DNA of 64,000 nucleotides from NCBI GenBank assembly GCA_964467515.1, contig CAYXQP010000002.1, forward strand, positions 1,275 to 65,274, read 5' to 3'. Position numbers and translations under genes: made by a program. Source of the DNA: an uncultured Eubacteriales bacterium (GTDB taxonomy: Bacteria > Bacillota > Sulfobacillia > DYIH01 > JBBIPI01). The notes under the pieces were generated by a model. It was not told where the DNA came from. It made no database searches and saw only the letters and a program-made list of their open reading frames with translations. How positions within the stretch are numbered: position 1 is the first letter of the stretch; the number at the start of each line of letters is the position of its first letter. Shown here piece by piece: positions 11,717 through 62,671 of this stretch.

Positions 11717-11870
11717 CGCGGGCCACCTTCCTTGGGCGCCATTGTAGCCAGCCTGCGAGGCATTGTCAACGGCTGGACGCGCGCCGGAGGGCGGGTTGCC
11801 GGCCGCTTGCGGCCCCATGGTCTTCCTCGTGCGCGGCGGGACGCGCTGCTGGCAAAAGGTTACAGTCTCC

Positions 11871-11899
11871 TTGAACCGGGGTTGGGAGACCAATATAAT
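11871..11899 (+). promoter_or_regulatory. Near-consensus SigA promoter (TTGAAC, 17 nt, TATAAT) for the yacL-ispDF-cysS unit
   Basis: TTGAAC at 11871-11876 and TATAAT at 11894-11899, 28 nt upstream of the ATG at 11928. Confidence 0.6.
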
Positions 11900-11927
11900 A
11901 GCAGCGAAAGGCGGTGAATGCCAAGAC

Positions 11928-47958: not shown

Positions 47959-48072
47959 GTGAAGATCAGGCCGTCGGTGAAGAAGATTTGCGAGAAGTGC
48001 AAGATAATTCGCCGCCACGGGCGTATAATGATTGTTTGTGAGAATCCCAAGCACAAGCAGCGCCAGGGCTAG
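47959..48072 (+). CDS. rpmJ: 50S ribosomal protein L36 (zinc form)
   Basis: GTG start. [37 protein letters not shown]. Confidence 0.9.
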
Positions 48073-48081
48073 CGGGGGGTA

Positions 48082-48468
48082 ATGGCGGTGGCGCGCATAG
48101 CAGGTGTGGACCTGCCCAGGGACAGGAGGATCGAGGCGGCTCTGCCCGTCATCTATGGCATCGGTTTTTCGCGGGCGCGCGAAATACTGGCGGCGACGGG
48201 CATCGACCGCGACACGCGCGTGCGGGACCTGACCGAGACCGAGGTGGCCCGGCTCAGGGACTATATCGAGCGCAACTTCAAAGTGGAGGGTGAGCTGCGG
48301 GCCGAGGTGCAGCTGAACATCCGGCGCCTCATGGACATCGGGTGTTATCGCGGCCTGCGCCACAGGCGGGGCCTGCCCGTGCGGGGGCAGCGCACCCGGA
48401 CCAACGCGCGGACGAGGAAGGGCCCGCGCCGCACCGTGGCCGGCAAGAAGAAGGCGACCAAGAAGTAA
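48082..48468 (+). CDS. rpsM: 30S ribosomal protein S13
   Basis: (M)[18 protein letters not shown]... The start may be the GTG at 48088. Confidence 0.93.
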
Positions 48469-48549
48469 CCCTCGATCGGGACAATTCGGCTTCGCGGCGG
48501 CGGGGGACGGTATGCCCCGCTGCCGCTCCGCCGGGGAGGAAGGCCAGCG

Positions 48550-48951
48550 ATGATCAAGAAGGAAAAGGGGCGCAAGCCCCGGGCACGCAAGCGCGAGCGC
48601 AAGAACGTCGAGCACGCCGTGGCCCACATCCAGTCGACGTTCAACAACACCATCATCACCATCACCGACCCGCAGGGCAATGCCATCGCCTGGGGGTCAA
48701 GCGGGACCATCGGCTTCAAGGGAGCCAAGAAGGGAACCCCGTACGCGGCCCAACTGGCGGCCGAGCATGCCGCCCGCCTGGCCATGGAGCACGGGGTGCG
48801 ATCGGTGGAGGTGGAGGTGAAGGGCCCGGGTTCGGGACGCGAGGCCGCCATCCGGTCGCTCCAGGCGGCGGGGCTCGACGTCCGTTCCATCAAGGATGTA
48901 ACGCCGGTGCCTCACAACGGTTGCCGGCCGCCCAAGCGGCGGCGGGTCTGA
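48550..48951 (+). CDS. rpsK: 30S ribosomal protein S11
   Basis: Conserved S11. 133 aa. Confidence 0.95.
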
Positions 48952-48963
48952 GGGGGTTCGAGG

Positions 48964-49590
48964 ATGGCCAGGCAGCGAGGTCCGCTCTGCCGTCTCTGCC
49001 GCAGGGAGGGCATCAAGCTCTTCCTCAAGGGTGACAGGTGCTACACGCCCAAGTGCGCCGTCGAGCGCAAGGGGCACCCGCCGGGCCAGCACGGCCGCGA
49101 GCGCCGCAAGCTCTCGGAGTACGGGGTGCACCTGCGGGAGAAGCAGAAGGTGCGGCGGTTCTACGGGGTGCTGGAGCGCCAGTTCCGCCGTTACGTGGCG
49201 CGGGCCATGCGCACCCGCGGCGTCACGGGGACCGCCCTTCTGCGCCTGCTGGAGAGGCGGCTGGACAACGTGGTTCACCGCGCCGGCCTGGCGGCGTCCC
49301 GGGCCGAGGCGCGACAGCTGGTCAACCACGGCCACTTCCAGGTCAACGGACGCAAGGTGGACGTGCCCTCCTACCTGCTGCGCCAGGGCGACGTGGTGGA
49401 GGTGCGGGAGGGCTCTCGTTCGCTGCCGCGTTTCAAGGAACTGGCCGAGGCTGCGGCGGCGAGGAGACTCCCGGACTGGCTCTCCGCCGATTACGAGGCC
49501 ATGCGGGTCAACGTGCTCCGTTACCCGGAGCGGGAGGAAATCGATCTCCCCGTGAAGGAGCAGCTCATCGTTGAGCACTATGCTCGTTGA
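48964..49590 (+). CDS. rpsD: 30S ribosomal protein S4 (zinc-finger form)
   Basis: CRLCRREG...CYTPKC. 208 aa. Confidence 0.95.
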
Positions 49591-49657
49591 ACAGTTGGGC
49601 GCCTCGGCGGGGAGGCGCCAGGGCGGAGACGGCGAGTCCGGGCAAGGGGGGTTCGGT

Positions 49658-50605
49658 GTGCTCGAGGTGGAACGGCCGACACTGAACTGCGCAGAGATGT
49701 CGCCCGACGGCAGCTACGGACGGTTCGTGGTGGAGCCGCTGGAGAGGGGGTACGGTCTCACCCTGGGCAATTCCCTGCGCCGGATCCTCCTCTCGTCCAT
49801 AGCGGGGGCGGCCGTGACCTCCATCAAGATAGACGGGGTGTTGCACGAGTTCTCGGCCCTGCCCGGCGTGGTGGAGGACGTGGTGGAGATCGTCCTCAAC
49901 GTCAAGGGGCTGGCCATCCGCATGGATACCGACGAGGCCAGGCTGCTCCGCGTCGACAGGACGGAGGAGGGGCCCGTGACGGCGGCGGACATCATGCTTC
50001 CCCAGGACGTGGAGATCGTCAACCCCGACCATCTCCTCGCCACCCTGGACCGGGGCGGACGCCTCCGCATGGAGATGACGGTGGAAAAGGGGCGGGGCTA
50101 CGTGCCGGCCGAGCGCAACAAGAAGGCCGGTCAGCCCATCGGCGTCATTCCCGTGGACTCCATCTTCACCCCCGTACGCCGGGTCAACTACACGGTGGAG
50201 AACACGCGGGTGGGCCAGATCACCAATTACGACCGGCTCATCATGGAGGTCTGGACCAACGGTGCCGTCCGCAGCGACGAGGCCCTGCGCGAGGCGGCGC
50301 AGGTGCTCATCGGTCACCTCCAGCTCTTCGCCGGCGCCGACGACGGCCTGGCTTCCCGGTTGGATGGATCCCGCCAGGTGAGCGAGCAGGACAGGCTCCT
50401 GGCGACCAGCATAGAGGCCCTCAACCTCTCCGTCCGCTCCTTCAACTGTCTCAAGAGGGCCGGGATCAACACCATCGGCGACCTCGTGGAGAAGACCCCC
50501 GAGGAGATGATGAAGGTCCGCAACCTGGGACAGAAGTCCCTGGAGGAAGTACAGGAGAGGCTGGCCGCCCTGGGCCTGGGGTTGAGGCCCTCCGAGGAGG
50601 AGTGA
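49658..50605 (+). CDS. rpoA: DNA-directed RNA polymerase subunit alpha
   Basis: GTG start gives MLEVERPTLNCAEMSPDGSYGRFVVEPLERGYG, which matches RpoA N-termini. 315 aa. Confidence 0.93.
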   Translation: MLEVERPTLNCAEMSPDGSYGRFVVEPLERGYGLTLGNSLRRILLSSIAGAAVTSIKIDGVLHEFSALPGVVEDVVEIVLNVKGLAIRMDTDEARLLRVDRTEEGPVTAADIMLPQDVEIVNPDHLLATLDRGGRLRMEMTVEKGRGYVPAERNKKAGQPIGVIPVDSIFTPVRRVNYTVENTRVGQITNYDRLIMEVWTNGAVRSDEALREAAQVLIGHLQLFAGADDGLASRLDGSRQVSEQDRLLATSIEALNLSVRSFNCLKRAGINTIGDLVEKTPEEMMKVRNLGQKSLEEVQERLAALGLGLRPSEEE

Positions 50606-50967
50606 TGGCCGCCATGGCCTTTGCACCCGTAGGCGAGGGGAAGCTGGGCCGCGACAGCTCCCACCGGCGCGCCCTGTTGCGCCACCTAGTGACCGCCCTC
50701 TTCGCCCAAGAGCGCATCGAGACCACCCTGGCCAAGGGACGCCAGGTGCGGGCGGTGGCCGAGCGGCTCATAACGGTTGCCAAAAGGGGCGATCTCCACG
50801 CCCGGCGCCTGGTCGCCGGCTACGTGCTGGACCCGGCCGTAGCCAAGAAGCTCTGTGAGCAGATCGCCCCGCGGTACGCCGAGCGGCCCGGCGGTTACAC
50901 CCGCCTGGTCAAGCTCGGCGTGCGGCGCGGGGACGCGGCGCCTCTGGCCGTAGTCGAGCTGGTCTGA
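50602..50967 (+). CDS. rplQ: 50S ribosomal protein L17
   Basis: KLGRDSSHRRALLRHLVTALFAQERIETT... Confidence 0.93.
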   Translation: MMAAMAFAPVGEGKLGRDSSHRRALLRHLVTALFAQERIETTLAKGRQVRAVAERLITVAKRGDLHARRLVAGYVLDPAVAKKLCEQIAPRYAERPGGYTRLVKLGVRRGDAAPLAVVELV

Positions 50968-51015
50968 CCGGCGCGTCCCGCCGTCGTGGGCGCGGTCCCG
51001 GAGGACGGCACGGCC

Positions 51016-51855
51016 ATGGATCCCCCCTGCGGGCGGCGGCTCGCCCTGCGGGTGGCCTACGACGGCACCCGTTACCTCGGGTTTCAGCGACAGGCCCGCG
51101 GCCCCACCGTGCAGGAAGCCCTGGAGGAGGCCCTTTCCCGTCTCGCGGGTGCGCGCGTCGTCGTCCATGGTGCGGGGCGGACGGACGCCGGCGTCCACGC
51201 CTGGGGGCAGGTGGTCCACTGCGAGGCGGCCCTGTCCATCCCTCTGGAGCGTCTTCCCCTGGCCATCAACGCCCGGCTCCCCGGCGACGTGGTCGTGACG
51301 GGCGCCGCCGCGGTCCCCGGCGGATTCCACGCCCGCTACGAGGCTCGGGGCAAGACGTACCGTTATCTCATCTGGCGAAAGGGGACGCCGTCACCCTTCC
51401 TCGCCCGTTACGCCTGGCATTGCCGCTGGGAACTGGACATCGCTCCGATGCGCCGCGCCGCCGCCCGCCTGGTGGGGACCCATGACTTCCGCGCCTTCAG
51501 CGCGGCCGGCACCCCCGTGCGGAGCACCGTCCGCACCCTGAGGCGTCTCGAGTTGACGGCGGCCGCCGACGGCTCCCTGCTCCTCGTGGAGCTGGAGGCG
51601 GATGGGTTTCTGTACCGGATGGCGCGGCGCATCGTGGGAACCCTGGTCCAGGCGGGGCGGGGGCGACTCGCACCGGAGGACGTGGCCGCCATCCTGGACG
51701 GGAGCGGGCTCCGGGCCGGCCCGCCAGCCCCGGCGCGCGGCCTCTGCCTGGCCGGCGTACTCTACGAGCCGCCCCTCGCCTTCCGGCCGGACGCTGATGC
51801 CGGCCTGCCGGTGCCCTTCGCGCCGCCGGTGGTGTCCCCGGGGTCGCGGGGCTGA
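51016..51855 (+). CDS. truA: tRNA pseudouridine(38-40) synthase TruA
   Basis: RLALRVAYDGTRYLGFQRQ...GAGRTDAGVHAWGQVVH. The upstream GTG at 50986 is an alternative start. Confidence 0.85.
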   Translation: MDPPCGRRLALRVAYDGTRYLGFQRQARGPTVQEALEEALSRLAGARVVVHGAGRTDAGVHAWGQVVHCEAALSIPLERLPLAINARLPGDVVVTGAAAVPGGFHARYEARGKTYRYLIWRKGTPSPFLARYAWHCRWELDIAPMRRAAARLVGTHDFRAFSAAGTPVRSTVRTLRRLELTAAADGSLLLVELEADGFLYRMARRIVGTLVQAGRGRLAPEDVAAILDGSGLRAGPPAPARGLCLAGVLYEPPLAFRPDADAGLPVPFAPPVVSPGSRG

Positions 51856-51934
51856 GGCGGCCGCCCGGACCCGTAGCGGGGCGGCGGCCACGTGGTCGCG
51901 GAGGCCGCGCCGCCCGGTGCGGTGAACGGGCCCT

Positions 51935-52903
51935 TCAGAGGGAAGCCAGTTGGTGGTAGGGGAGGTAGCCGACGCCCGTCACCGTGTCGGCGGCGCCGTA
52001 ATAGATTAGGAGGTCGCCGTCGGCCCAGATCATGCCGCAGGCAAAGACCACGTCCGGCTTGAGCCCCCGCCGCTCCCACGGCAACTCCGGCTGCAGCAGG
52101 GGCTCCCCCTGCCGCGCCAACACCTCCCAGGGCCGATCCGGGTGGAGGAGGGCCAGGCCCAGGCGGTACACGTTGGCCTCGTCGGCGCCGTGGTAGACCA
52201 TGAGCCAGCGCCCGTCGGGGAGCCGGAGGGGGGGCGGGCCGATGCCCACCCGGGCGCTGTCCCAGCTTCCGGGGAGGGGTCGCAGGACGACACGGTACTC
52301 CTCCCAGAGGCCGACGGCTGGTCCCGAGGCCACCCAGATCTCACCCGTGGGGGGGCGGAAGTAGAGCCATGCCTTGCCATCGATCCGCTCGGGCAGCAGG
52401 GCGGCGTTCTTGCAACCGGGCAGGCCGAGGGGGTCCGTGCCGGCGCGGGGCCAGGCATAGGGCACGCTGCTGGCCCGCAGAGCCACTCCCCAGTCGCCGG
52501 GAAACCGGGCGCCGAAGGCCGTGGTGAGTAGGTACCAGGTATCGTCCAGCAGGGTCACGCGGGGGTCCTCCACACCGCGCGTCTCCCGACAGGGAGTGAA
52601 GGGGTCGCAGGGCGGCTTCACCACGGGGTGAGGGTGCACGTCGAAGTGTAGGCCGTCCCGGGAGGTGGCCAGGCCGATGCAGGAGATCCAGCCGTCCGGC
52701 AGGGCCCGGCTCGTGGCGCGAAAGAGGAGGTATACCTCGGCGCCGTACAGGCAGGCGGTGGGATTGAAGGTGGCGGCGGCGCGCCAGGGCACCTCCGGGT
52801 CCGGCTCCAGGATGGGGGTTTCGGATAGGCGGCGCACGTACAGAGGGCGCCCCCGCCAAGGGGCGGCCGTCTTTCCGTTCGGCCGGAGGACGGGCGCATT
52901 CAT
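51935..52903 (-). CDS. GH130-family (DUF377, beta-propeller) glycoside hydrolase/phosphorylase-like protein
   Basis: FNPTA..., EDPRVTL..., IYYGAADTVTGVGY motifs. ATG start with a GGAG Shine-Dalgarno. Confidence 0.65.
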   Translation of the reverse strand: MNAPVLRPNGKTAAPWRGRPLYVRRLSETPILEPDPEVPWRAAATFNPTACLYGAEVYLLFRATSRALPDGWISCIGLATSRDGLHFDVHPHPVVKPPCDPFTPCRETRGVEDPRVTLLDDTWYLLTTAFGARFPGDWGVALRASSVPYAWPRAGTDPLGLPGCKNAALLPERIDGKAWLYFRPPTGEIWVASGPAVGLWEEYRVVLRPLPGSWDSARVGIGPPPLRLPDGRWLMVYHGADEANVYRLGLALLHPDRPWEVLARQGEPLLQPELPWERRGLKPDVVFACGMIWADGDLLIYYGAADTVTGVGYLPYHQLASL

Positions 52904-53042
52904 GGTCGTGCTCCGCTCGCGTGCCTCGTTCCGGATGCGGCGCATGGCTGTATCTTTATCGCCCCAAGATACGAACGTTTTGAACGGCCGGTGCCTTGGT
53001 TGCGCGGTCGGGGGCGCGTCGCTATACTTTTTGTGCCGTGTC

Positions 53043-53117
53043 GCGCCCGTAGCTCAGAGGATAGAGCACCGGCCTCCGGAGCCGGGTGCGGGGGTTCGAT
53101 TCCCTCCGGGCGCACCA
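53043..53117 (+). tRNA. tRNA-Arg (anticodon CCG)
   Basis: Acceptor GCGCCCG/CGGGCGC, anticodon loop CTCCGGA, T-loop TTCGATT, CCA encoded. Confidence 0.85.
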
Positions 53118-53246
53118 CCCTTTGCTGCCTACTCTTCGGCGGTCGACAGCGCGCTGTGAGGTGCGCCGGGCCTTCGCCGGGATTCCCCGGCGGAGGAGGC
53201 GAGGACCGCCGTCCTCCGCGGCCTCGCTGACCGCTGTTTCAGGTCT

Positions 53247-54209
53247 TCAGGGGCGGAACAAAAGAGAGAGGATTCCCTTGAAGACGTGCAGGCGGTTTTC
53301 GGCCTGCTCCCACACCAGGGAACGGGGACCGTCCAGGACGTCGGCTGTCACCTCCTCGCCGCGATGGGCGGGGAGGCAGTGGAGGAAGACGGCCTCGGGG
53401 CGGGCCCGTGCCATGAGGGCCGCGTCCACCCGGTAGGGGGCGAAGATCCGCAGCCGTTCCTCCCTCTCCTCCTCGCGGCCCATGCTGGCCCACACGTCGG
53501 TGTACACGGCGTGGGCGCCCGCCACCGCCGCGACCGGGTCGTGTCCCACCTCCACCCGGCCGCCCGACCCGGCCGCCACCGCCGCGGCCAGCCGGACCTC
53601 CTCGGGCTCGGGCTCATAGCCGGGAGGGCTGGCCACGGCCAGGTCCATGCCCACCAGGGCCGCGGCCATCAGAAGGGAGTGGCAGACGTTGTTCCCGTCG
53701 CCCACGTAGGCGAGGCGCAGGCCCCGCCACCGGCCGAAGCGTTCGCGGAGAGTCAGGAGATCGGCCAGGGCCTGGGTGGGGTGGGTGCGGTCCGTCAGGC
53801 CGTTGATGACGGGGACGGAGGCATGGCGGGCCAACTCCTCCACCTCCTCCTGGGCGAAGGTGCGCATCAGGATCCCGTCCAGGTAGCGGGAGAGGACGCG
53901 GGCCGTGTCGGCTACCGTCTCGCCACGGGAGAGCTGGAGCTCCTCCGGGTCGAGGATCACGGCCTGGCCGCCCAACTGTGCCACGGCCGCCTGGAAGGAG
54001 AGACGCGTCCGCGTGGACGGCTTGCGGAAGAGCATGCCCAGCACGCGCCCGCGCAGGGGTTCCTCTGCGCCGCGGGGCAGGCTCCTCCAGCGGGCTGCCT
54101 CGGCGAGGATGGCCAGCGTCTCCGCCGGCGAGAGGTCGGAGAGCCGCAACAGGTCCCTTCCCCGCAGGTCGACCTCCCCGGCCGCGTCGGCGCCCAGGAG
54201 CCGGCTCAC
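53247..54209 (-). CDS. argF: Ornithine carbamoyltransferase
   Basis: STRTR, HPTQ, DVWASMG and HCLP motifs. GTG start 5 nt after a GGGAGGGGGG Shine-Dalgarno. Confidence 0.88.
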   Translation of the reverse strand: MSRLLGADAAGEVDLRGRDLLRLSDLSPAETLAILAEAARWRSLPRGAEEPLRGRVLGMLFRKPSTRTRLSFQAAVAQLGGQAVILDPEELQLSRGETVADTARVLSRYLDGILMRTFAQEEVEELARHASVPVINGLTDRTHPTQALADLLTLRERFGRWRGLRLAYVGDGNNVCHSLLMAAALVGMDLAVASPPGYEPEPEEVRLAAAVAAGSGGRVEVGHDPVAAVAGAHAVYTDVWASMGREEEREERLRIFAPYRVDAALMARARPEAVFLHCLPAHRGEEVTADVLDGPRSLVWEQAENRLHVFKGILSLLFRP

Positions 54210-54237
54210 GGTGTCCCCCCTCCCGGCCGCGACGCGC

Positions 54238-55305
54238 TCACCCCACCCCGCCCCCCTCACCGGGTACGGTCGCCCCTGGGAGCGGGCGGGAGGGCCTCGC
54301 CTCCTCCATGCCCACGCCGTGCACGGCGGCGCCGCACCCGGGGCAGCGTCCGTCCACGAGCCTGACCTCCTCCACATAGAAACCCCGCCGAACGATGAGG
54401 GGTTCCCCGCACACGGCGCAGGCGGTGTCGTCGTCCCCCGGTCGCCAGGTGTTGCCCACGTAGACATGGTGCAACCGCCGGCGCGCCAGGTCGCGGAAGC
54501 GCTCCAGGGTGGCCAAGGGCGTGGGTGGATTCGTCAGCCGGTAGGCGGGGTGGTAACGGGAGAGGTGCAGGGGGATCTCCTGCCCCAATCCCGCTAGCCA
54601 TGCCACCAGGCCGGTGAACTGCTCCTCGTCGTCGTTCTCTCCCGTGACCACCAGGTGCGTCACCTCCAGGTGGCGACCGGCCCGGTGGATGGCCTCCACC
54701 GTGTCCAGGACCGGCCGGAGCAGGCCGCGGCAGACGCGGGTGTAGAAGCCCTCGGCAAAGGCCTTGACGTCCACGTTGAAGGCGTCCACCACGCCCAGGA
54801 GGTCACCGAGCGGCGCCGGCGAGAGGAAGCCGTTGGTAACCATGACCACCTTGAACCCTTCGTGGCGCAGGAGAGGCGCCGCGTCCATGATGTACTCGAA
54901 CCAGAGGCCAGGCTCGTTGTAGGTGAAGGCCACTCCCACGCAGCCCGGGTCCCTGGCGCGGGCGGCCGCCGCGGCGGCGACGAGACGGGCGGGCGGGAGG
55001 AGGTCGGTGGGCGCCTCCTCCTGGGAGATGGCCCAATTCTGGCAGAAGGCGCAGGCCAGATTGCACCCGAGGCTTCCGAAGGACAGGACGCGGTGGCCGG
55101 GATAGAAGTGGAACAGAGGTTTCTTCTCCACCGGGTCCAGGTGGGCGGCCGCGACCCGGGCGTAATTGACGGCATAGAGCGTTCCCTCGATGTTCCGGCG
55201 CGTCCGGCAGTAGCCCGCCTTGCCGGGGGCGATCCGACAGTTCTTGGGGCAGAGCCGACACACCGCCAGGCCGTTCTTGCGCTCATAATATAAGGCCTCG
55301 TGCAT
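54238..55305 (-). CDS. AmmeMemoRadiSam-system radical SAM enzyme (PFL-activase-like)
   Basis: CNLACAFCQN (CxxxCxxC). N-terminus ALYYERKNGLAVCRLCPKNCRI. C-terminal Cys cluster. Immediately upstream of argF on the same strand. Confidence 0.8.
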   Translation of the reverse strand: MHEALYYERKNGLAVCRLCPKNCRIAPGKAGYCRTRRNIEGTLYAVNYARVAAAHLDPVEKKPLFHFYPGHRVLSFGSLGCNLACAFCQNWAISQEEAPTDLLPPARLVAAAAAARARDPGCVGVAFTYNEPGLWFEYIMDAAPLLRHEGFKVVMVTNGFLSPAPLGDLLGVVDAFNVDVKAFAEGFYTRVCRGLLRPVLDTVEAIHRAGRHLEVTHLVVTGENDDEEQFTGLVAWLAGLGQEIPLHLSRYHPAYRLTNPPTPLATLERFRDLARRRLHHVYVGNTWRPGDDDTACAVCGEPLIVRRGFYVEEVRLVDGRCPGCGAAVHGVGMEEARPSRPLPGATVPGEGGGVG

Positions 55306-55394
55306 AATTATGCAAACGCCTCCCCTGCAGACCACCGGCGCGGCGGCCCACCCGCTGACGGAGGGCCCGTCGACGCCGGGCCGGTCTGCCCGCC

Positions 55395-56780
55395 CTAGGT
55401 GAACCGCCTGGTTCGAAACCTGTAGATGGATATCCCCTCCTCGACAGGCGCGATCCCTGCCTTGCGGCAGGCCAGGAGGTACTGTTGGAGCGGCCTGTCC
55501 ACCCCCTCGAGGGCCGGCAGGAGGAGGCCCCGACGCCTTCCCTTAGCCACGATGACGCCGTATGTCGCTGGGTCCAGGTCCTCCCAGGAGGCTACGGGCT
55601 CGGCCGGTTCCAGGATGTCCACGCTCACGCTCAGGTCGGGCAACTCCTCCGGCACGAGCGGCGGAAACCGCGGGTCGGCGGTGGCGGCCGCCACGGCGTT
55701 GGCCACGATCTCCTCCAGGAGGGTGGGGCGCACCGGCGCTACGGTGCCCATGCAGCCTCGCAGCCTGCCGTCGGCCTTCAGGGAAACGAACACCCCGCGA
55801 GCCTGGGCCAGGAGCTCCGGATCCTCCTCGGTCAGTTCCGGGGCCTCGGCGGCGATGCGCTCGGCCAGACGGTGGGGGTCGGCCTCGCCGTCCTCCAGGA
55901 GAAGGGCCAGGGCCCGGCGGGCGACGGCCACGGGAGCGGAGGCACCCTCCCCGGCCGCGGGGCGCCACAGGGCCACGGCGTAACCGACCCCGAAGGGCCC
56001 CTCGTAGGAGAGCAGCCGCACCTCGGCGCGGTGCCCCGCCAGGGCGCCGAGGAGGATGCCGAGGCTGGGGAGGGCGTCCTGGCCGGCGCGGGCGGCCAGC
56101 TCGGCGGGAAAGTCGAGGAGGTCCTCGGACGCTCCCGACCGGAGGAGTTGTACCAACCGCCGGTCGAAGAGGGGCCCCTCGGGCGCGTAGCCGGCGGGGG
56201 CCTGGGGGGTGAGTCGGTGGGAGAGGTCTCCGCTGGCCAGGAGGGCCACGGCCCGCCGCAGACGCTCGGCGGCTCGTCGCAGCGCGGCGCCGTAAGGCGC
56301 GGCCTGGCGGGGCGGGCCCCACGGAGGCGTCAGGATGACGCAGGGGCGGAGGGCTCCGCCCCGGCTGAGGAAATACAGGGGTACCAGGGCTCCGTGGTCC
56401 AAGCGGTGGGGACGGACCACCCGGACAGCGAGCCCGGCCGCGACGGCTTCGTAGGCCACCGCCTCCGCTAGGTCCCGGTCCAGCTCCACCGTGATCTCGA
56501 CCTCGGGGGCACCGAACTCGCCGAATCCCCCGGCCAGTCTTTCTCCTGCGTACAGGCAGACGGCCTCCTCGCTCACGGGGCCGTGGGGGGTGACCAGCAC
56601 CAGGGTGTCGGCGGGAGTGGAGGAGACTTGCCGGGCCAGATCCCCCAGGGCGCGGGCCGTCCGCCGCACCTGTCCCGCCGCCTCCCCGCCCACCTCGGGG
56701 ACGAGGACGGGGGGATGGGGTACCAGGGCTCCCAGGACTATCCCCGCCACGGGCCTACCCCTCGCCGGGATGATGTGCAT
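55395..56780 (-). CDS. Fusion protein: N-terminal LigB/Memo-like (class III extradiol-dioxygenase fold) domain and C-terminal AMMECR1 domain
   Basis: N-terminal VPHPP...TPHGP...LDHGALVPL...SGDLSHRL (LigB/Memo-type). C-terminal GVFVSLKADGRLRGCMGT...YGVIVAKGRRRGLLLP (AMMECR1). Confidence 0.75.
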   Translation of the reverse strand: MHIIPARGRPVAGIVLGALVPHPPVLVPEVGGEAAGQVRRTARALGDLARQVSSTPADTLVLVTPHGPVSEEAVCLYAGERLAGGFGEFGAPEVEITVELDRDLAEAVAYEAVAAGLAVRVVRPHRLDHGALVPLYFLSRGGALRPCVILTPPWGPPRQAAPYGAALRRAAERLRRAVALLASGDLSHRLTPQAPAGYAPEGPLFDRRLVQLLRSGASEDLLDFPAELAARAGQDALPSLGILLGALAGHRAEVRLLSYEGPFGVGYAVALWRPAAGEGASAPVAVARRALALLLEDGEADPHRLAERIAAEAPELTEEDPELLAQARGVFVSLKADGRLRGCMGTVAPVRPTLLEEIVANAVAAATADPRFPPLVPEELPDLSVSVDILEPAEPVASWEDLDPATYGVIVAKGRRRGLLLPALEGVDRPLQQYLLACRKAGIAPVEEGISIYRFRTRRFT

Positions 56781-56831
56781 CCAGCCGCGCCACCGTTATT
56801 ATAACGCCAGGCGCCGGCGGCCCGGCCGGGC

Positions 56832-58199
56832 GTGGGGGTGGAGGGCTTGTTCGATAAGGTGCTGGTGGCCAATCGGGGCGAGATAGCGGTCCGGATCATC
56901 CGGGCGTGCCGGGAACTGGGCATCCGCACGGTGGCCGTGTACTCGGAGGCCGACGCGGGCGCCCTCCACGTGGCCTTGGCGGACGAGGCGTACTGCGTGG
57001 GCCCGGCCCCGGACGTCCGCAGCTACCTCAACGTGGGTGCCATCCTGGAGGTGGCCGCCCGCACCGGCGCTGAGGCCGTGCACCCCGGCTACGGCTTCCT
57101 GGCCGAAAACCCCCACTTCGCCGCCGTCTGCCGCGCCTGGGGGCTGGACTTCATCGGCCCCGATCCGGAGGTCATCGAGCGCATGGGGTCCAAGGCCCTG
57201 GCGCGGCAGGCCATGCTGCAGGCGGGGGTGCCGGTGGTGCCGGGGAGCCCGGGCGTCGTGGAGAGTCCAGATGAGGCCCTGGAGATAGCAGCGGACATCG
57301 GGTACCCGGTGTTAATCAAGGCCGCAGCGGGGGGCGGCGGGCGGGGTATCCGGGTGGCGGGGACGCCGGGAGAGCTGGAGGAGATGCTGGAGGCCGCCCA
57401 GCGGGAGGCAGCCCGCTTCTTCGGCCAGGGGGACGTCTATCTCGAGAGGTTCCTGGAGGATCCCAGGCATGTGGAGGTCCAGATTCTGGCGGATCGGCAC
57501 GCACACGTGGTTCACCTGGGGGAGCGGGAGTGCTCGGTGCAGCGGCGCCGGCAAAAGATCCTGGAGGAGGCGCCGTCCCCGGCCCTCTCCCCCGCGCAGC
57601 GCAGGGCTCTCTGCGAGGCCGCCGTTCGGGCCGCCACGGCCGTGGGGTACAACAACGCCGGCACCGTCGAGTTCCTGGTGGACCGGAGCGGATCCTTCTA
57701 CTTTTGCGAGATGAACACGCGCATCCAGGTGGAGCACCCCGTGACGGAGATGGTGACGGGCGTGGACATCGTCAAGGAGCAGATCCGGGTGGCGGCCGGG
57801 CTGCCGCTGCGTTTCCGCCAGGAAGACGTCCAACCCCGCGGCTGGGCCATGGAGTGCCGCATAACGGCCGAGGACCCGGACAACCGCTTGCTCCCCTCGC
57901 CCGGGACCGTCACGGAGCTGGCGCTGCCCGGCGGACCCGGTGTCCGGGTGGACAGCGGGGTGGGGGTCGGCTCCCAGGTGCCGCCCTACTACGACTCCCT
58001 CATCGCCAAGGTCATCTGCTGGGGGGAGGACCGGGAGGAGGCGCGGGCCCGCATGGGCCGCGCCCTGCGCGAGCTGCGCGTGGGCGGGATCAGGACCATC
58101 GTCCCCCTCCTGGAGGAGATCCTGCGCCATCCGGATTTCACGGCGGGGCAGTACCACACGCGTTTCCTCGAGGAAGCCCTCTTGGCCGCCAGGCGCTGA
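56832..58199 (+). CDS. accC: Biotin carboxylase (AccC-like: acetyl-CoA carboxylase or pyruvate carboxylase subunit A)
   Basis: VLVANRGEIAVRIIRACRELGI and the ATP-grasp domain. No accB is adjacent. The true start may be a TTG or GTG slightly downstream. Confidence 0.88.
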   Translation: MGVEGLFDKVLVANRGEIAVRIIRACRELGIRTVAVYSEADAGALHVALADEAYCVGPAPDVRSYLNVGAILEVAARTGAEAVHPGYGFLAENPHFAAVCRAWGLDFIGPDPEVIERMGSKALARQAMLQAGVPVVPGSPGVVESPDEALEIAADIGYPVLIKAAAGGGGRGIRVAGTPGELEEMLEAAQREAARFFGQGDVYLERFLEDPRHVEVQILADRHAHVVHLGERECSVQRRRQKILEEAPSPALSPAQRRALCEAAVRAATAVGYNNAGTVEFLVDRSGSFYFCEMNTRIQVEHPVTEMVTGVDIVKEQIRVAAGLPLRFRQEDVQPRGWAMECRITAEDPDNRLLPSPGTVTELALPGGPGVRVDSGVGVGSQVPPYYDSLIAKVICWGEDREEARARMGRALRELRVGGIRTIVPLLEEILRHPDFTAGQYHTRFLEEALLAARR

Positions 58200-58246
58200 G
58201 CGGGGAACGACGGCAAGGCGGTGACGCGAAAGGGCGACGAGCCCCC

Positions 58247-58642
58247 TCAGCGCTTGCTGTACTGGGGGGCCTTGCGGGCCTTTTTGAGGCCGTACTTGCG
58301 CCGCTCCTTCTCCCGCGGGTCGCGCGTCAGGAGCCCGGCCCGCCGGAGAGTGCGCCGCAGGCTCTCGTCCAGGGTCAGGAGGGCCCGCGCCACGCCGTGG
58401 CGGACGGCGCCCGCCTGGCCGGAGAGCCCGCCCCCCTGCACGTTGACCAGGACGTCGTACTTGTCCTCGGTGGCGGTCAGGGCCAGGGGCTGCCGCACCT
58501 CAATCTGGTGCCGGCGGCGCGGAAAGTACTCGTCCAGGGGCTTGCCGTTGACGATCACGTTGCCGTTGCCCGGGACCAGCCGCACCCTGGCCACGGCCTC
58601 TTTGCGCCTGCCGGTACCCCAGTACTGGACCCTATAACCCAT
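58247..58642 (-). CDS. rpsI: 30S ribosomal protein S9
   Basis: ...[29 protein letters not shown]. Confidence 0.95.
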
Positions 58643-58723
58643 GCCCGGTCTCTCCTCACTTCAAGGGAATCCGTCCGCCGGATCGTCCGGTCCGTCCCCG
58701 CCGCCCCGCCCGCGCCCCCGCGG

Positions 58724-59158
58724 TCAGTCCAGGGGCCACGGCTCCGGCCGCTGCGCCTGGTGCGGATGCTCGGCCCCGCGGTACACGCGCAGCTTGCCCA
58801 TCATGGCCCGCCCCAGGGCCGTCTTGGGGAGCATGCCGCGCACGGCCTTTTCCATCACGCGCTCGGGCCGGGTCCGCAGGAACTCGCGGTAGGACATCGC
58901 CCTCAACCCCCGGGGCCAGCCGGTGTGACGGTAGTAGATCTTTTGGTCCAACTTGCGGCCCGTCAGCACGATCCGGGCGGCGTTGATCACGATGACGTGA
59001 TCGCCCACGTCCAGGAAGGGGGTGTACTCGGGCTTGTGCTTGCCCTGGAGGAGCCTCGACACGACGGTGGCGACGCGCCCCAGCGGTCTGCCCGCCGCGT
59101 CGATGACGTACCACCTGCGCTCGATCTCCCTGGTGTCGGGCACGAAAGTCCTTTGCAC
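58724..59158 (-). CDS. rplM: 50S ribosomal protein L13
   Basis: MQRTFVPDTREIERRWYVIDA... Confidence 0.95.
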   Translation of the reverse strand: MQRTFVPDTREIERRWYVIDAAGRPLGRVATVVSRLLQGKHKPEYTPFLDVGDHVIVINAARIVLTGRKLDQKIYYRHTGWPRGLRAMSYREFLRTRPERVMEKAVRGMLPKTALGRAMMGKLRVYRGAEHPHQAQRPEPWPLD

Positions 59159-59334
59159 CGAAAACCCTCCGCACCTGGCCCGCAGACCCCATCAGCCAAA
59201 GGGTCCGGCACCCGCCTGACGGGGGCCGGCGGACCGGGTCAAGTTTAGCCACGGGTGCACCCTCTGTCAAGGCGAGGGGGGTCCCTCCGCACCGCAGCAC
59301 CGCCGCGGGCCGGAGCGTCCGGGGGTGACCCTCC

Positions 59335-59607
59335 TCACTCCCTCCCGAGGAGGAGGAGCAGGCCGAGGACGACAAAGGAAAGGCCGGCCGCCGTGCGGAG
59401 GGTCTGAACGGGGAGCACCCTCCCGATGACCGACCCGACGGTCACCCCGAGCAAGGCGGCCGCGCAGAGAGCGACCACCGCTCCCAGGAGGACCCACAGC
59501 CTATCGTCGCTCCTGGCCGCCAGGAGGACCGTGGTCAGCTGGGTCTTGTCGCCCAGTTCCGCCAGGAAGACGAGGACGAAGGTCCCCAGGAAGGTGCGCC
59601 AGTCCAT
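59335..59607 (-). CDS. UPF0016/GDT1-family half-size membrane protein (putative Mn2+/Ca2+ transporter half)
   Basis: E-x-G-D-K-T motif (ELGDKTQ) and 3 TM helices. Confidence 0.7.
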   Translation of the reverse strand: MDWRTFLGTFVLVFLAELGDKTQLTTVLLAARSDDRLWVLLGAVVALCAAALLGVTVGSVIGRVLPVQTLRTAAGLSFVVLGLLLLLGRE

Positions 59608-59621
59608 GGCCGCCGACCCGG

Positions 59622-60077
59622 TCAGGTGGAACGACCCGCCCGGACCCGGTTCTCCGCGCAGGAACGGCAGTAGCCGTAAAACTTGAGCTGGTGGTCGGTG
59701 ACGCGGAAACCGGTACGGCGTTCCACCTCGTCCTCCAGGGAGTCCAGCAGGTCCTCCCCGAATTCCGCCACGGCCCCACAGGAGACGCAGATGAGGTGGT
59801 GGTGATGATGGGCCTCGTCGGCGAACTCGAAACGCGCCCGGCCGTCACCGAAGTCCATCTTGTGCAGTATGCCCAGCTCGGAGAGGAGGTCCAGGGTCCG
59901 GTACACGGTGGCCAGGCCGATGTCGGGACTCTCCCGCTTGACCATGTTGTAGACTTCCTCGGCGCTCAGGTGCTCGCCGCTGCTCTTGAGCAGCGCCTGC
60001 ACCACCAGCTGGCGCTGGGGTGTGAGCTTGTAATCGTGCTCCTGCAGGCGCGCCATGATCTCTTCCAACCGGCTCAT
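59622..60077 (-). CDS. fur: Fur-family metalloregulator (Fur/Zur/Mur-like)
   Basis: HLSAEEVY...GLATVYRTLDLL..., an HHHHH run, CxxC...CxxC. ATG with a GGAAGGAG Shine-Dalgarno. The longer upstream ORF would overlap tRNA-Ser and is rejected. Confidence 0.85.
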   Translation of the reverse strand: MSRLEEIMARLQEHDYKLTPQRQLVVQALLKSSGEHLSAEEVYNMVKRESPDIGLATVYRTLDLLSELGILHKMDFGDGRARFEFADEAHHHHHLICVSCGAVAEFGEDLLDSLEDEVERRTGFRVTDHQLKFYGYCRSCAENRVRAGRST

Positions 60078-60111
60078 GGCCATCGCTCCTTCCCGCGGCG
60101 GGGGAACCCTC

Positions 60112-60203
60112 TGGCGGAGGAGGTGGGATTCGAACCCACGCACGGCCCGCGGCCGCCTTCCGGTTTTCAAGACCGGCCCCTTCAACCGCTTGGGTACTCC
60201 TCC
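60112..60203 (-). tRNA. tRNA-Ser (anticodon TGA), type II
   Basis: Acceptor GGAGGAG/CTCCTCC, anticodon loop CTTGAAA, 20-nt variable arm, T-loop TTCGAAT, CCA encoded. Confidence 0.85.
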
Positions 60204-60325
60204 GCATCGTCCGGCCACCGGCGCGGCAGCACTTTTCCGCCCCGCGCTGGGTTTTCCAGGTCGATTTCCGGCAAGGCAAGGATAGCACTTCGTCCATGCC
60301 AGGGCAAAAGCGCGGGCTCACCCCG

Positions 60326-60595
60326 TCACCGCGACCGCGTGGCGAAGGCCACCATGGCCACGCCCAGGAGCACGAGGACCAGTCGGGGAAGGGGCAGGCG
60401 GTCCGCCAGCCCCGCCACACCGATGGCCGTCGCCAGCACCAGCACCGCCGGTCCGACCATGCCCAGGAAGGCGTTTATCCGGACGGCGTCCTCGAGGCGC
60501 CCGAGGCGGTACATGAGATAGGCACCGGTCAGCTCGGCCGTCGCCGACAGCAGCCGCACGGCGATCATCCCCTGGAGGAACGGGTCGCCCGCCAT
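60326..60595 (-). CDS. Small hydrophobic membrane protein (about 89 aa; possibly YqhV/DUF2619-like)
   Basis: Three predicted TM segments. ATG with a GAGG Shine-Dalgarno. The GTG at 60646 is an alternative. Confidence 0.5.
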   Translation of the reverse strand: MAGDPFLQGMIAVRLLSATAELTGAYLMYRLGRLEDAVRINAFLGMVGPAVLVLATAIGVAGLADRLPLPRLVLVLLGVAMVAFATRSR

Positions 60596-60753
60596 GATCA
60601 TCCTCAGCCTATGCTGGCGGCGGATCGCCCATCCTGGGGAGAACACACTAAGCCGGAACCGGGACGCGTCCGATCTTTCACCGGCCTTTCATCGGGCCTT
60701 AACGACCCTTTAACAGCGGTCGCCTTGAATGGAGAGGGACGTCCCCAACCAGC

Positions 60754-61704
60754 GTGCGAAGGAGGCGGCGGAGGGTGAGTGCCCTCGGCAGAGTCTGGCT
60801 CTTGGCGGTGGCGGTTTCGCTGGCGGCGGCCGGCTGTGCCCGCGGCGGCCAGCCGGGCAAGGCGAGCCTCGCAGGGACCATCCGCGTGGACGGTTCCAGC
60901 ACCGTCTTTCCCATCACCGAGGCGGTGGCGGAGGAGTTCGGCAAGCTCCATCCCCGCGTGCGGGTCACGGTGGGGATCTCGGGCACGGGCGGGGGCTTCA
61001 AAAAGTTCGTGGAAGGGGTGACCGACCTCCAGGACGCATCCCGGCCCATCACGGCTTCCGAGAGGGAGAGGGCCCGGAGGGCGGGCATAGAGTACGCCGA
61101 GGTGCCCGTGGGATACGACGGCCTGGCCGTGGTGGTCAACCCGGCCAACGGCTGGGCAGACTGCCTCTCCGTGACCGAGCTCCGCCGCATATGGGAACCC
61201 GGCAGCAAGGTGGCGCTGTGGCGCGACGTGCGCCCCGGCTGGCCCGACACCCCCCTGCGCCTCTTCGGGCCCGGAACCGACTCGGGCACCTTCGACTACT
61301 TCACCGAGGCGGTGGTGGGCGAGGCCCGCAAGAGCAGGCCCGACTACACGGCCAGCGAGGACGACAACGTCCTGGTGGCGGGCGTGGCGGGTGAGCGGGG
61401 TGCCCTGGGCTACTTTGGCTTCGCCTATTACGAGGAGAACAGGGACCGGCTCAAGATCCTGGGCGTGGACGGCGGCAAGGGCTGCGTGGTCCCCGATGCC
61501 GACAAGGTGCGGTCGGGAGAGTACCCCCTGGCCCGTCCCCTTTTCCTGTACGTGAACCGCGCCTCCCTCTCCCGCCCGGAGGTCAGGGAGTTCCTGAGGT
61601 TCTATCTCCGGGAGGGGCCGGAGCTCGTGCGGCAGGTGGGGTATGTGCCGCTGCCGAAGGAAAGATACGCTGCCTCTCTTAGGGAGCTGGGCCTGGGGCA
61701 GTAG
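60754..61704 (+). CDS. pstS: Phosphate ABC transporter substrate-binding lipoprotein PstS
   Basis: Lipobox [18 protein letters not shown]...[10 protein letters not shown] motifs. Confidence 0.9.
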
Positions 61705-61723
61705 CGGCGGGGGAGGTCCCGGC

Positions 61724-62671
61724 TTGGGCGGCGGGGGGACGGAGAAGCTGACGGAGAGGGCTGAGGCCGGATCCGGCGAGAGGCGCGGGGGCTCCGCCCG
61801 CCGGCGCGGCGGGGGAGGGGAGAGGGTCATAACCCTGCTCCTGGGCGCCTCCGCCCTCCTGTCGCTCCTCACCACGGCTGGCATCGTGGCGTCGCTGGCG
61901 GTGGAGGCGGCGGGGTTCTTCGCGGCCGTACCCCTCCGGGACTTCCTCACGGACACCGCCTGGACCCCCCTCTTCGCCGAGAAGCACTTCGGCATCCTGC
62001 CCCTCCTCGGCGGCACCCTGCTGGTGGTCCTGGGCGCGAGCCTGGTGGCCCTGCCCCTCGGGCTCGGCAGCGCCGTCTACCTGGCCGAGGTGGCCTCTCC
62101 CTCCCTCCGGAAGCTCCTCAAACCGGTCCTGGAGGTCCTGGCGGGCATACCTTCCGTCGTCTATGGCTACCTGGCCCTCACCGGCATCACGCCCGTCCTG
62201 CGCGCCCTCTGGCCGGAAACCGAGGTCTTCAACGCCGCCAGCGCCAGCCTGGCCATGGGGATCATGATCCTGCCCATGGTCGCCTCCCTGAGCGAGGACG
62301 CCCTCGCCGCCCTGCCGCGTTCCCTCCGTGAGGGGGCCTATGCCGTGGGGGCCACCCGGTACGAGGCGGTGAGCCGGGTCCTCGTCCCCGCCGCCGCGTC
62401 CGGGATCGTGGCGTCCTTCATCCTGGCCGTGTCGCGCGCCGTCGGGGAGACCATGATCGTGGCCATAGCCGCGGGTTCCACACCCCGCCTAACCCTCAAC
62501 CCGCTGGAGGGTGTCCAGACCATGACGGGCTACATCGTGCAGGTGACCATGGGCGACGTGCCGGCGGGCTCCCTGGAATACCGAACCGTCTTCGCCGTCG
62601 GGCTGAGCCTCTTCCTCATCACCTTCGTCACGAACCTGATCGGCTACCGGGTCGCGGGGAGGCGGGGCTGA
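61724..62671 (+). CDS. pstC: Phosphate ABC transporter permease PstC
   Basis: TTG start after a GGGGGAGG Shine-Dalgarno. Permease signature EAA-like region. 315 aa. Confidence 0.85.

Follow-up and report, generated by a model that had tools for sequence, protein, structure and literature searches.

In the canonical Bacillota gene order, rpoA-rplQ-(ecfAAT)-truA-rplM-rpsI, the genes for ribosomal proteins L13 (rplM) and S9 (rpsI) follow truA. Three described classes of rearrangement bear on a departure from this order. Small local inversions between close bacterial genomes show collinear flanks around a reversed core, intergenic breakpoints and no gene gain or loss inside the segment. Invertase-driven invertible segments, that is, phase-variable 'invertons' and Hin/Gin/Fim-type switches, are discrete segments that occur in both orientations among relatives, with promoters at the segment ends. 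Lastly, tRNA-targeted integrative elements and genomic islands have a tRNA gene at one edge and can bring metabolic genes to lie beside ribosomal genes.

The locus described here lies in a 64,000-nucleotide stretch of DNA (the window) and holds the same genes in the same neighbourhood as the canonical order, which the outgroup loci L093 and L095-L097 retain. It differs from that order in three respects: no ecf genes were found between rplQ and truA in the window locus, a GH130 gene stands between truA and rplM, and rplM-rpsI is reversed. With a probability of roughly 80%, we read the locus as a fixed two-breakpoint inversion in a high-GC, Bacillota-like genome. About 6.3 kb is reversed, and the genes that it holds are native and were linked ancestrally. 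The taxonomic hints are weak: hits that are 57-69% identical carry MAG names of Limnochordales, Bacillota and Clostridiales. The inversion has all of the features of small local inversions listed above as well as a skew signature that tracks orientation. It departs from them in that the L13-S9 operon is reversed relative to the S10/spc/alpha cluster and in the homoplastic distribution of the inverted state across a clade of three species. Apart from the homoplasy, the finding is ordinary genome evolution.

Extent and gene content of the inverted segment

ORF calls, tRNA calls and Pfam and NCBIfam assignments agree with the gene list and strands of the original prediction (Table 1), and the gene map upholds its claim that rplM-rpsI runs opposite to rplQ and truA. 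Within the segment, two genes encode ribosomal proteins, four are metabolic and one encodes a tRNA. Both AmmeMemoRadiSam genes exceed the curated cut-offs of their models (TIGR04337 and TIGR04335). The N-terminal half of the fusion protein matched Pfam LigB (PF02900) at 127.9 bits; no NCBIfam model for the Memo-like protein B was among the reported matches.

Table 1. Features of the truA-pstS interval, in window coordinates.
Feature	Position	Strand	Evidence	Placement
truA	51016..51855	+	Pfam PF01416	last gene of plus-strand ribosomal/rpoA/rplQ run; unmoved left flank
GH130 glycoside phosphorylase-like	51935..52903	-	PF04041	outside inverted segment
left breakpoint interval	52987..52999 (about)		blastn against L083 and junction alignment	
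putative tRNA-Arg promoter, TTGCGC-17 nt-TATACT	53000..53028	+	read from sequence	inside segment, inward-facing
tRNA-Arg(CCG)	53043..53117	+	ARAGORN and Rfam	first gene inside inverted segment
argF (ornithine carbamoyltransferase)	53247..54208	-	TIGR00658, 401.7 bits (cut-off 280.85); gene call in L081	inverted
AmmeMemoRadiSam-system radical SAM enzyme	54205..55305	-	TIGR04337, 313.7 bits (cut-off 220)	inverted
LigB/Memo-like + AMMECR1 fusion	55395..56780	-	PF02900 and PF01871; TIGR04335, 124.3 bits (cut-off 99)	inverted
accC (biotin carboxylase)	56832..58199	+	TIGR00514, 670.8 bits (cut-off 626.5)	inverted
rpsI (S9)	58247..58642	-	NF001099, 194 bits	inverted
rplM (L13)	58724..59158	-	TIGR01066, 187.6 bits	inverted
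putative rplM promoter, TTGACA-17 nt-TAAACT	59242..59270	-	promoter scan	inside segment, inward-facing
right breakpoint interval	59271/59272..59295 (about)		blastn against L083, manual junction reading and MAFFT alignment	
GDT1/UPF0016	59335..59607	-	Pfam/NCBIfam	unmoved right flank
fur	59622..60077	-	Pfam/NCBIfam	unmoved right flank
tRNA-Ser(TGA)	60112..60203	-	tRNA prediction	unmoved right flank
DUF2619	60326..60595	-	Pfam/NCBIfam	unmoved right flank
pstS	60754..61704	+	Pfam/NCBIfam	plus strand beyond block

The decisive relatives were found by protein searches followed by contig look-ups with the exact proteins. The closest, L083, is uninverted, and its truA and rplM are 81% and 89% identical to those of the window. 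We refer to the species of the window as A, to that of L083 as C, and to a more distant species as B; L001 serves as an outgroup. The order in L083 is truA(+), GH130(-), rplM(+), rpsI(+), accC(-), LigB/AMMECR1(+), radical SAM(+), argF(+), tRNA-Arg(-), GDT1(-), fur(-), tRNA-Ser(-), DUF2619(-) and pstS(+).

When the window was compared with L083 by blastn, we found a single two-breakpoint inversion at about 52.99-59.28 kb, spanning tRNA-Arg through rplM. Both flanks are collinear and in plus orientation (window 48000-52986 and 59351-62028). For instance, window 51970-52986 corresponds to L083 10895-11914 (+) on the left, and window 59351-62028 corresponds to L083 18201-20904 (+) on the right. 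The core is reversed, with window 52999-53120 matching L083 18093-17972 and window 53263-59271 matching L083 17943-11949, and its content is the same in both genomes at six protein-coding genes and one tRNA gene. The original prediction had drawn the flipped block from 51,856 to 60,753 (8.9 kb), which the blastn comparison does not bear out (Table 1). In particular, GH130, GDT1, fur, tRNA-Ser and DUF2619, all taken to be inverted, lie on the same minus strand in uninverted L083, as GDT1 and fur also do in L001. Its proposal that inverting the block restores the canonical order was right in substance, since doing so yields truA, (GH130), rplM and rpsI on the plus strand as in L083, but not for the proposed limits of 51.9-60.6 kb.

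Both breakpoints are intergenic. On the left, about 85-95 nt separate the break from the GH130 start, on the upstream side of that gene, and the -35 box of the putative tRNA-Arg promoter follows immediately after the break. The right one has the putative rplM promoter on one side and the GDT1 stop codon on the other. The junction spacers in the window measure 139 and 176 nt. In the uninverted arrangement, the corresponding spacers are the divergent GH130/rplM spacer and the one that separates tRNA-Arg from the 3' end of GDT1. Nucleotide alignment across the breakpoints, aimed at distinguishing a single shared event from two separate ones, showed that only constrained elements still align, namely the promoters and the GH130 upstream element.

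Native origin of the segment genes

The inverted state of the window is derived. In all of the other linked loci that we examined outside species A and B (∼38), rplM is co-directional with rplQ or truA; these comprise L001, L093, L095, L096 and L097 and about 33 further loci. L001, the closest relative among the matches listed in our rplM genome scan (69% identical), has the uninverted order, including a tRNA-Arg(-) that adjoins GDT1(-). In both L083 and L001, tRNA-Arg thus adjoins GDT1 on the strand opposite to the one it occupies in the window, and uninverted relatives carry accC on the minus strand. Two readings that would undercut an inversion had been raised with the original prediction. 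The first, that all close relatives share the arrangement, does not hold since the sister species L083 lacks the inversion. The second, that rplM-rpsI are second copies, fails on orthology given the identity of rplM to the canonical-position copy in L083, and no second copy of rplM or rpsI was found within the window.

The GH130 gene has a separate history. All three species of the clade carry it between truA and rplM, A and B with rplM-rpsI reversed, and it is absent from this position in L001, L093, L095, L096 and L097. It is therefore a single-gene, lineage-specific insertion, apart from the inversion. A metagenome scan with GH130 returned the L083 contig only. The nearest homologue outside the clade, 63% identical and found in L088, sits in an unrelated mraZ/pyr context and was dropped as evidence on the inversion.

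The original prediction described an ∼8.7-8.9 kb inversion or insertion in which tRNA-Arg and tRNA-Ser acted as mediators and metabolic cargo entered the ribosomal supercluster. In its favour, a minus-strand gene run does span 51.9-60.6 kb, and two tRNA genes lie in the strand-switched region. We regard such an event as highly improbable. Besides the strand assignments in L083 and L001 given above, the supposed cargo is at home here in relatives. In uninverted L083 and L001, rpsI is followed by accC, the LigB/AMMECR1 fusion, the radical SAM gene, argF and tRNA-Arg, and some of these genes also follow it in L002, L069, L093, L094 and L097. The GC content of the block (0.70-0.73) is inside the range of the window. 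The positions of the tRNA genes do not fit either, as tRNA-Ser lies ∼0.8 kb outside the right breakpoint and tRNA-Arg lies inside the segment, having moved along with its own putative promoter.

We also looked for the hallmarks of a mobile element. No integrase, transposase, resolvase or IS domain was found by Pfam and NCBIfam in any ORF of the block, all of which have housekeeping assignments, and no site-specific recombinase is encoded within 48-64 kb of the window. There are no IS copies at the breakpoints, and the junction spacers contain no ORF or long repeat. Of the att-like or inverted repeats proposed for the boundaries, none was present at the window breakpoints: the best inverted repeat between the window junctions scored below the shuffle mean (p = 0.78), and no direct repeat was found between them (p = 0.77). 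Between the L083 junctions, the best inverted repeat was likewise not significant (p = 0.16), and direct repeats there did not exceed chance either. A duplicated tRNA 3' end bounding the segment was not found. Fragments of tRNA-Arg were considered as att sites and rejected; their best p values, 0.02-0.03 among 12 local-alignment tests, came from G-rich low-complexity sequence, and the similarity between tRNA and junction is not convincingly above chance. Rfam identified tRNA only at the two junctions, with no L13 leader or other family. In contrast to tRNA-targeted integrative elements, the segment therefore has no integrase, no duplicated tRNA 3' end and no compositional anomaly, and its genes stand at the same place in relatives. 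The comparison corrects a plausible but wrong reading, that of a tRNA-mediated island inside the ribosomal supercluster.

Age of the orientation and putative promoters at the segment ends

Both window junctions were reproduced by independent Logan contigs from three sequencing runs, SRR11582145, SRR11582147 and SRR11582148, at 99.97-99.98% identity. To gauge orientation from composition, as the original prediction had suggested for GC skew, we computed third-codon GC skew as the value for accC minus that of the five genes co-oriented with rplM. The result was +0.139 in A, +0.152 in B, -0.072 in C and -0.160 in the outgroup, and it fits the present orientation in each genome. Because third-codon skew matches the present orientation, the inverted orientation in the window is old.

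These data also bear on whether a mis-join accounts for the window's inversion or for the uninverted state of the L083 contig. L083 is known from one metagenome assembly, GCA_900174565.1, and in species A the Logan contigs end within tRNA-Arg, both of which leave some room for an artefact. However, independently assembled contigs from the three runs span both window junctions, the species B junctions were each recovered in two runs, SRR11582149 and SRR11582164, and no repeats are long enough to mislead an assembler. Moreover, the skew gap between inverted (A and B) and uninverted (C and outgroup) genomes is ∼0.26, an estimated 4 SE or so, which a mis-join cannot produce. An assembly artefact is thus very unlikely, and we take the inversion to be a genuine feature of species A.

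Each segment end carries a putative promoter. The rplM promoter has 10/12 matches in the promoter scan, where it was one of two matches found against 0.4 expected. Alignment showed that A, B and C all retain its sequence ahead of rplM, and that the tRNA-Arg promoter sequence is conserved beside tRNA-Arg in all three species whichever the orientation. From their consensus matches, we infer that both promoters are functional. Since each end of the segment starts with its own inward-reading putative promoter, a flip would swap the ends without cutting any transcription unit, and this is probably why the inversion could become fixed. The flip itself probably arose without a mobile element, by recombination that was illegitimate or used very short homology. 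In the flipped state, rplM-rpsI comes right after fur-GDT1 on the minus strand, in the reverse direction from the other genes of the ribosomal cluster, and tRNA-Arg diverges from GH130. The flipped rplM-rpsI is probably head-on to replication, where the leading strand is assigned solely from the positive GC skew over 1-50 kb. The locus would offer a clear case of an inversion that is neutral for transcription and yet turns a strongly expressed ribosomal operon against its own cluster.

Homoplasy of the inverted state

Species B, although more distant from the window than L083, carries the same inversion. The locus tree places the species as ((A,C),B) with 100% bootstrap support across four different outgroups, and the orientation is inverted in A, inverted in B, not inverted in C and not inverted in the outgroups. 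Given the tree ((window, L083), B) and this distribution of states, two flips of the same segment are needed. The same segment therefore appears to have inverted on two occasions among these few species; its inverted state is a homoplasy, and a single neutral event does not explain all of the data. The two flips could be an ancestral inversion followed by reversal in C, or independent inversions in A and B. We tried third-codon GC skew as a means of separating these histories and set it aside: C has an intermediate value, -0.072 vs -0.160 in the outgroup, which is not a significant difference.

This raises the question of whether the 6.3 kb segment is a recurrent flip unit with at least two inversions, either as a promoter-bounded hotspot or as a reversible switch acting via cryptic recombination sites near the promoters, which would account for the homoplasy. 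The locus tree calls for two events, both at the same pair of short spacers, and the promoter pair makes up a weak inverted repeat, CGYSGCTAWACTT, with 11/13 positions matching. In addition, a 31-nt imperfect inverted repeat (24/31 matching, p about 0.002 uncorrected) extends across the junctions of species B; it also counts against our main reading, as a hint that repeats may have played a part in the past. Against this, no invertase or recombinase is encoded in or beside the block, no significant inverted repeat was found in A or C, and homology breaks off upstream of each -35 box, outside the promoter repeat. Each species also shows one orientation in its assembled contigs (three runs for A, two for B), and the equilibration of third-codon skew to each orientation implies that flips are evolutionarily rare, unlike phase variation. 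The segment differs from invertons accordingly: it is 6.3 kb long and carries housekeeping genes, it has no invertase in or beside it and, in the window, lacks flanking inverted repeats, and it is seen in one orientation per species, which has lasted long enough that codon-position skew has re-equilibrated. Programmed or recurrent flipping is therefore unlikely in our view, and a recurrent flip unit as such, whichever of the two histories produced it, is equally doubtful; we retain the reading of a fixed inversion of native genes.

If the segment were nonetheless a recurrent flip unit, this would imply either a cryptic recombination hotspot or selection that toggles which way the L13-S9 operon faces and how it is coupled to the upstream fur-GDT1 transcript. 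The homoplasy among the three species amounts to a small natural experiment on how a ribosomal operon tolerates a head-on orientation and on spacers as rearrangement hotspots.

Gene order in related genomes and extent of the inversion

Gene identities and strands, checked by ORF listing, ARAGORN, Pfam and NCBIfam, were as originally predicted (see the table of features), and no second copy of rplM or rpsI was found within the 64-kb window. Its GC content is ~70%, with a positive + strand GC skew over 1-50 kb. An rplM scan of a genome collection yielded at least 80 loci, against which the window proteins were searched by tblastn. At all ~33 of the listed loci where the genes are linked, rplM is co-directional with the rplQ or truA to which it is linked. 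Among the matches listed, the nearest locus was L001, a Clostridiales MAG (rplM 69% identical), with the order rpoA, rplQ, truA, rplM, rpsI (all +), accC (-), LigB/AMMECR1 (+), radical SAM (+), argF (+), tRNA-Arg(CCG) (-), GDT1 (-), fur (-). This implies that the supposed metabolic cargo is the ancestral rpsI neighborhood and that the minus strand is the native orientation of GDT1 and fur.

Much closer relatives were obtained by a truA protein search followed by contig look-ups by exact protein. Three sequencing runs supplied Logan contigs of the window's own species (A), which match the window at 99.97-99.98% identity and contain both of its junctions. Species C (L083; FWPU01002906.1, GCA_900174565.1; truA 81%, rplM 89%, GH130 83% identical to the window) is uninverted: rplQ+ truA+ GH130- rplM+ rpsI+ accC- LigB/AMMECR1+ radical SAM+ argF+ tRNA-Arg- GDT1- fur- tRNA-Ser- DUF2619- pstS+. 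Species B (runs SRR11582149 and SRR11582164; truA 71%, rplM 76%, GH130 77% identical to the window) carries both inverted junctions, the left as truA+ GH130- tRNA-Arg+ argF- radical SAM- (L084, L089) and the right as fur, GDT1, rplM and rpsI in the same direction followed by accC in the opposite one (L091, L092). Among ~38 other linked loci examined, none has a reversed L13-S9 ribosomal operon.

Comparison of the window with L083 gave five blastn blocks, and the difference between the two is one inversion of ~6.3 kb. The original prediction of an inversion was right in kind, while its extent of 8.7-8.9 kb was too large. The left breakpoint lies upstream of GH130, directly upstream of the -35 box of the predicted tRNA-Arg promoter, and the right one is flanked by the predicted rplM promoter and the stop codon of GDT1; GH130, GDT1, fur, tRNA-Ser and DUF2619 were unmoved. 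The tRNA genes, proposed as ends and mediators, are not the ends of the segment, and no att-like repeats were found. Nor were metabolic genes brought in, as the same genes adjoin rpsI in uninverted L001 and L083.

Features of the locus and their counterparts in related loci
Feature	Window	Strand	Related loci
rpsK, rpsD, rpoA, rplQ, truA	truA 51016-51855	+	
rplQ-truA spacer	50967-50986		ecfA-ecfA-ecfT: L097 6604-9013
GH130	51935-52903	-	L083 10860-11831; L084 2197-3171; outside homologue L088 10001-10981
GH130 upstream element	52942-52974 (exact repeat 52950-52972)		L083 ~11868-11900; L084 ~3209-3241
Left breakpoint	52987-52999		
tRNA-Arg(CCG)	53043-53117	+	
argF	53247-54208	-	
AmmeMemoRadiSam pair	54205-56780	-	
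Radical SAM gene	54205-55305	-	
LigB/Memo-like+AMMECR1 fusion	55395-56780	-	
accC	56832-58199	+	L001 8901-10265; L093 1857-3209; L094 1117-2469; L097 10832-12184
rpsI	58247-58642	-	
rplM	58724-59158	-	
Predicted rplM promoter	59270-59242		
Right breakpoint	~59272-59295		
GDT1/UPF0016	59335-59607	-	
fur	59622-60077	-	
tRNA-Ser(TGA)	60112-60203	-	
DUF2619	60326-60595	-	
pstS, pstC, pstA	after DUF2619	+	
Species B 31-nt inverted repeat			L084 ~3250-3280; L091 between 3516 and 3653
blastn block	48000-51829	+	L083 7006-10838
blastn block	51970-52986	+	L083 10895-11914
blastn block	52999-53120	inverted	L083 18093-17972
blastn block	53263-59271	inverted	L083 17943-11949
blastn block	59351-62028	+	L083 18201-20904

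Age and number of inversion events

We computed third-codon-position GC skew on orthologues, comparing accC with five genes co-oriented with rplM. The contrast follows orientation, with a pooled difference of ~0.26 (~4 SE by our estimate). Since the skew fits the present orientation in each genome, the orientations are genuine and have lasted long enough for synonymous sites to re-equilibrate. Mis-assembly was rejected, as it cannot yield orientation-matched third-codon skew.

Third-codon-position GC skew by orientation
Genome	Five genes	accC	accC minus five
A (window, inverted)	-0.122	+0.017	+0.139
B (inverted)	-0.152	0.000	+0.152
C (L083, uninverted)	-0.033	-0.105	-0.072
Outgroup (L001, uninverted)	-0.010	-0.170	-0.160

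Despite the inverted state of A and B, the locus tree (concatenated proteins, 11 genes, 2,704 columns) is ((A,C),B), with protein distances of 0.133 (AC), 0.207 (AB) and 0.215 (BC) and 79 informative sites, compared with 23 and 26 for the two other topologies. In four-point bootstraps this tree was recovered in 1000/1000 replicates with L001 as outgroup and in 500/500 under every one of four outgroup sets. Most single genes of the segment and flanks favor this topology and none clearly backs another; transfer of the segment alone is no explanation. With C and the outgroups uninverted, two events are needed: either the ancestor shared by A, B and C underwent the inversion and C later reverted, or A and B were inverted independently. 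Intergenic DNA is highly diverged, such that only the promoters and the element upstream of GH130 align across the three species. At the left junction, A and B alike pass from GH130-side into tRNA-side sequence immediately after a common GGTG, and the C junctions contain 22 nt and ~38 nt without counterpart in A or B; these features are compatible with either history. Assembled contigs show one orientation per species (three runs for A, two for B). It strikes us as rather improbable that the segment is a hotspot of repeated flipping or a toggle in evolution.

Segment ends and probable consequences of the flip

No mobile-element genes were found in the block, whose ORFs all have housekeeping assignments (Pfam, NCBIfam) and whose GC content is inside the window's range. 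Repeats at the window breakpoints were likewise at chance level: the best inverted repeat between the two junctions did not reach the mean score of shuffled sequence (p = 0.78), and for direct repeats p = 0.77. The inverted-repeat search at the L083 junctions gave p = 0.16, and an Rfam search of both junctions returned tRNA only. Matches of tRNA-Arg at the junctions are weak and G-rich, and we did not accept these as att sites. An imperfect inverted repeat of 31 nt (24/31) spans the junctions in species B alone (p ~0.002, uncorrected) and is absent in the window and L083.

Predicted promoters stand in front of tRNA-Arg (TTGCGC-17-TATACT) and, from a promoter scan, rplM (TTGACA-17-TAAACT). Both stay with their own genes, facing inward, in species A, B and C, so every transcription unit would be intact after the flip. 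Taken together, the best-supported reading is an ordinary fixed inversion, without a mobile element, of a native segment with inward-facing predicted promoters at both ends. Transcription of rplM-rpsI would then oppose the rest of the ribosomal cluster and, judging from the positive + strand GC skew, probably run head-on to replication. Because rplM-rpsI now lies directly downstream of fur-GDT1, read-through from that transcript is possible, and tRNA-Arg would be divergent from GH130, no longer following GDT1. Events of this kind are well known and this is a new instance; reversal of a ribosomal operon, and two flips of the same segment within three species, are mildly surprising.

GH130 and other observations

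GH130 lies between truA and rplM in species A, B and C only. The two genes are adjacent in the outgroups, with L001 having instead a different 205-aa minus-strand ORF between them, and GH130's nearest outside homologue (63%, L088) sits in an unrelated mraZ/pyr context. Of the genes in the block, GH130 alone is truly inserted into the ribosomal cluster, in the truA-rplM spacer. Upstream of it is a conserved element, GCATGGCTGTATCTTTATCGCCCCAAGATACG, with a 7-bp inverted repeat, GTATCTT-N9-AAGATAC, whose exact form occurs once in the window, against 0 expected by chance, with slight variants kept in species B and C. We regard this element as a candidate GH130 operator or promoter.

The window's AmmeMemoRadiSam genes comprise a LigB/Memo-like domain fused to AMMECR1 and an adjoining TIGR04337 radical SAM gene, a pair linked to rplM-rpsI in L001, L002, L069 and L083 as a recurring L13-S9 association. 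In uninverted relatives across the wider clade, rpsI is directly followed, on the other strand, by a solitary accC (biotin carboxylase) beside which no accB was seen. The window, L083, L001 and L095 lack ecfA-ecfA-ecfT between rplQ and truA, whereas Bacillus-type genomes have it there and the outgroup L097 likewise retains it. The mechanical ORF for argF (53247-54467, -, 406 aa) is over-extended, overlapping the radical SAM gene; its Pfam and NCBIfam domain matches start only at residue 102-104, and in gene calls on identical contigs the protein has 320 aa and its start lies at ~54208. Lastly, species A Logan contigs from all three runs are interrupted within tRNA-Arg and overlap there by 30 nt (window 53070-53099; L085 ends at 53099, L086 at 53098, and L081 begins at 53070), likely owing to a k-mer common to another tRNA-Arg(CCG) in the metagenome.
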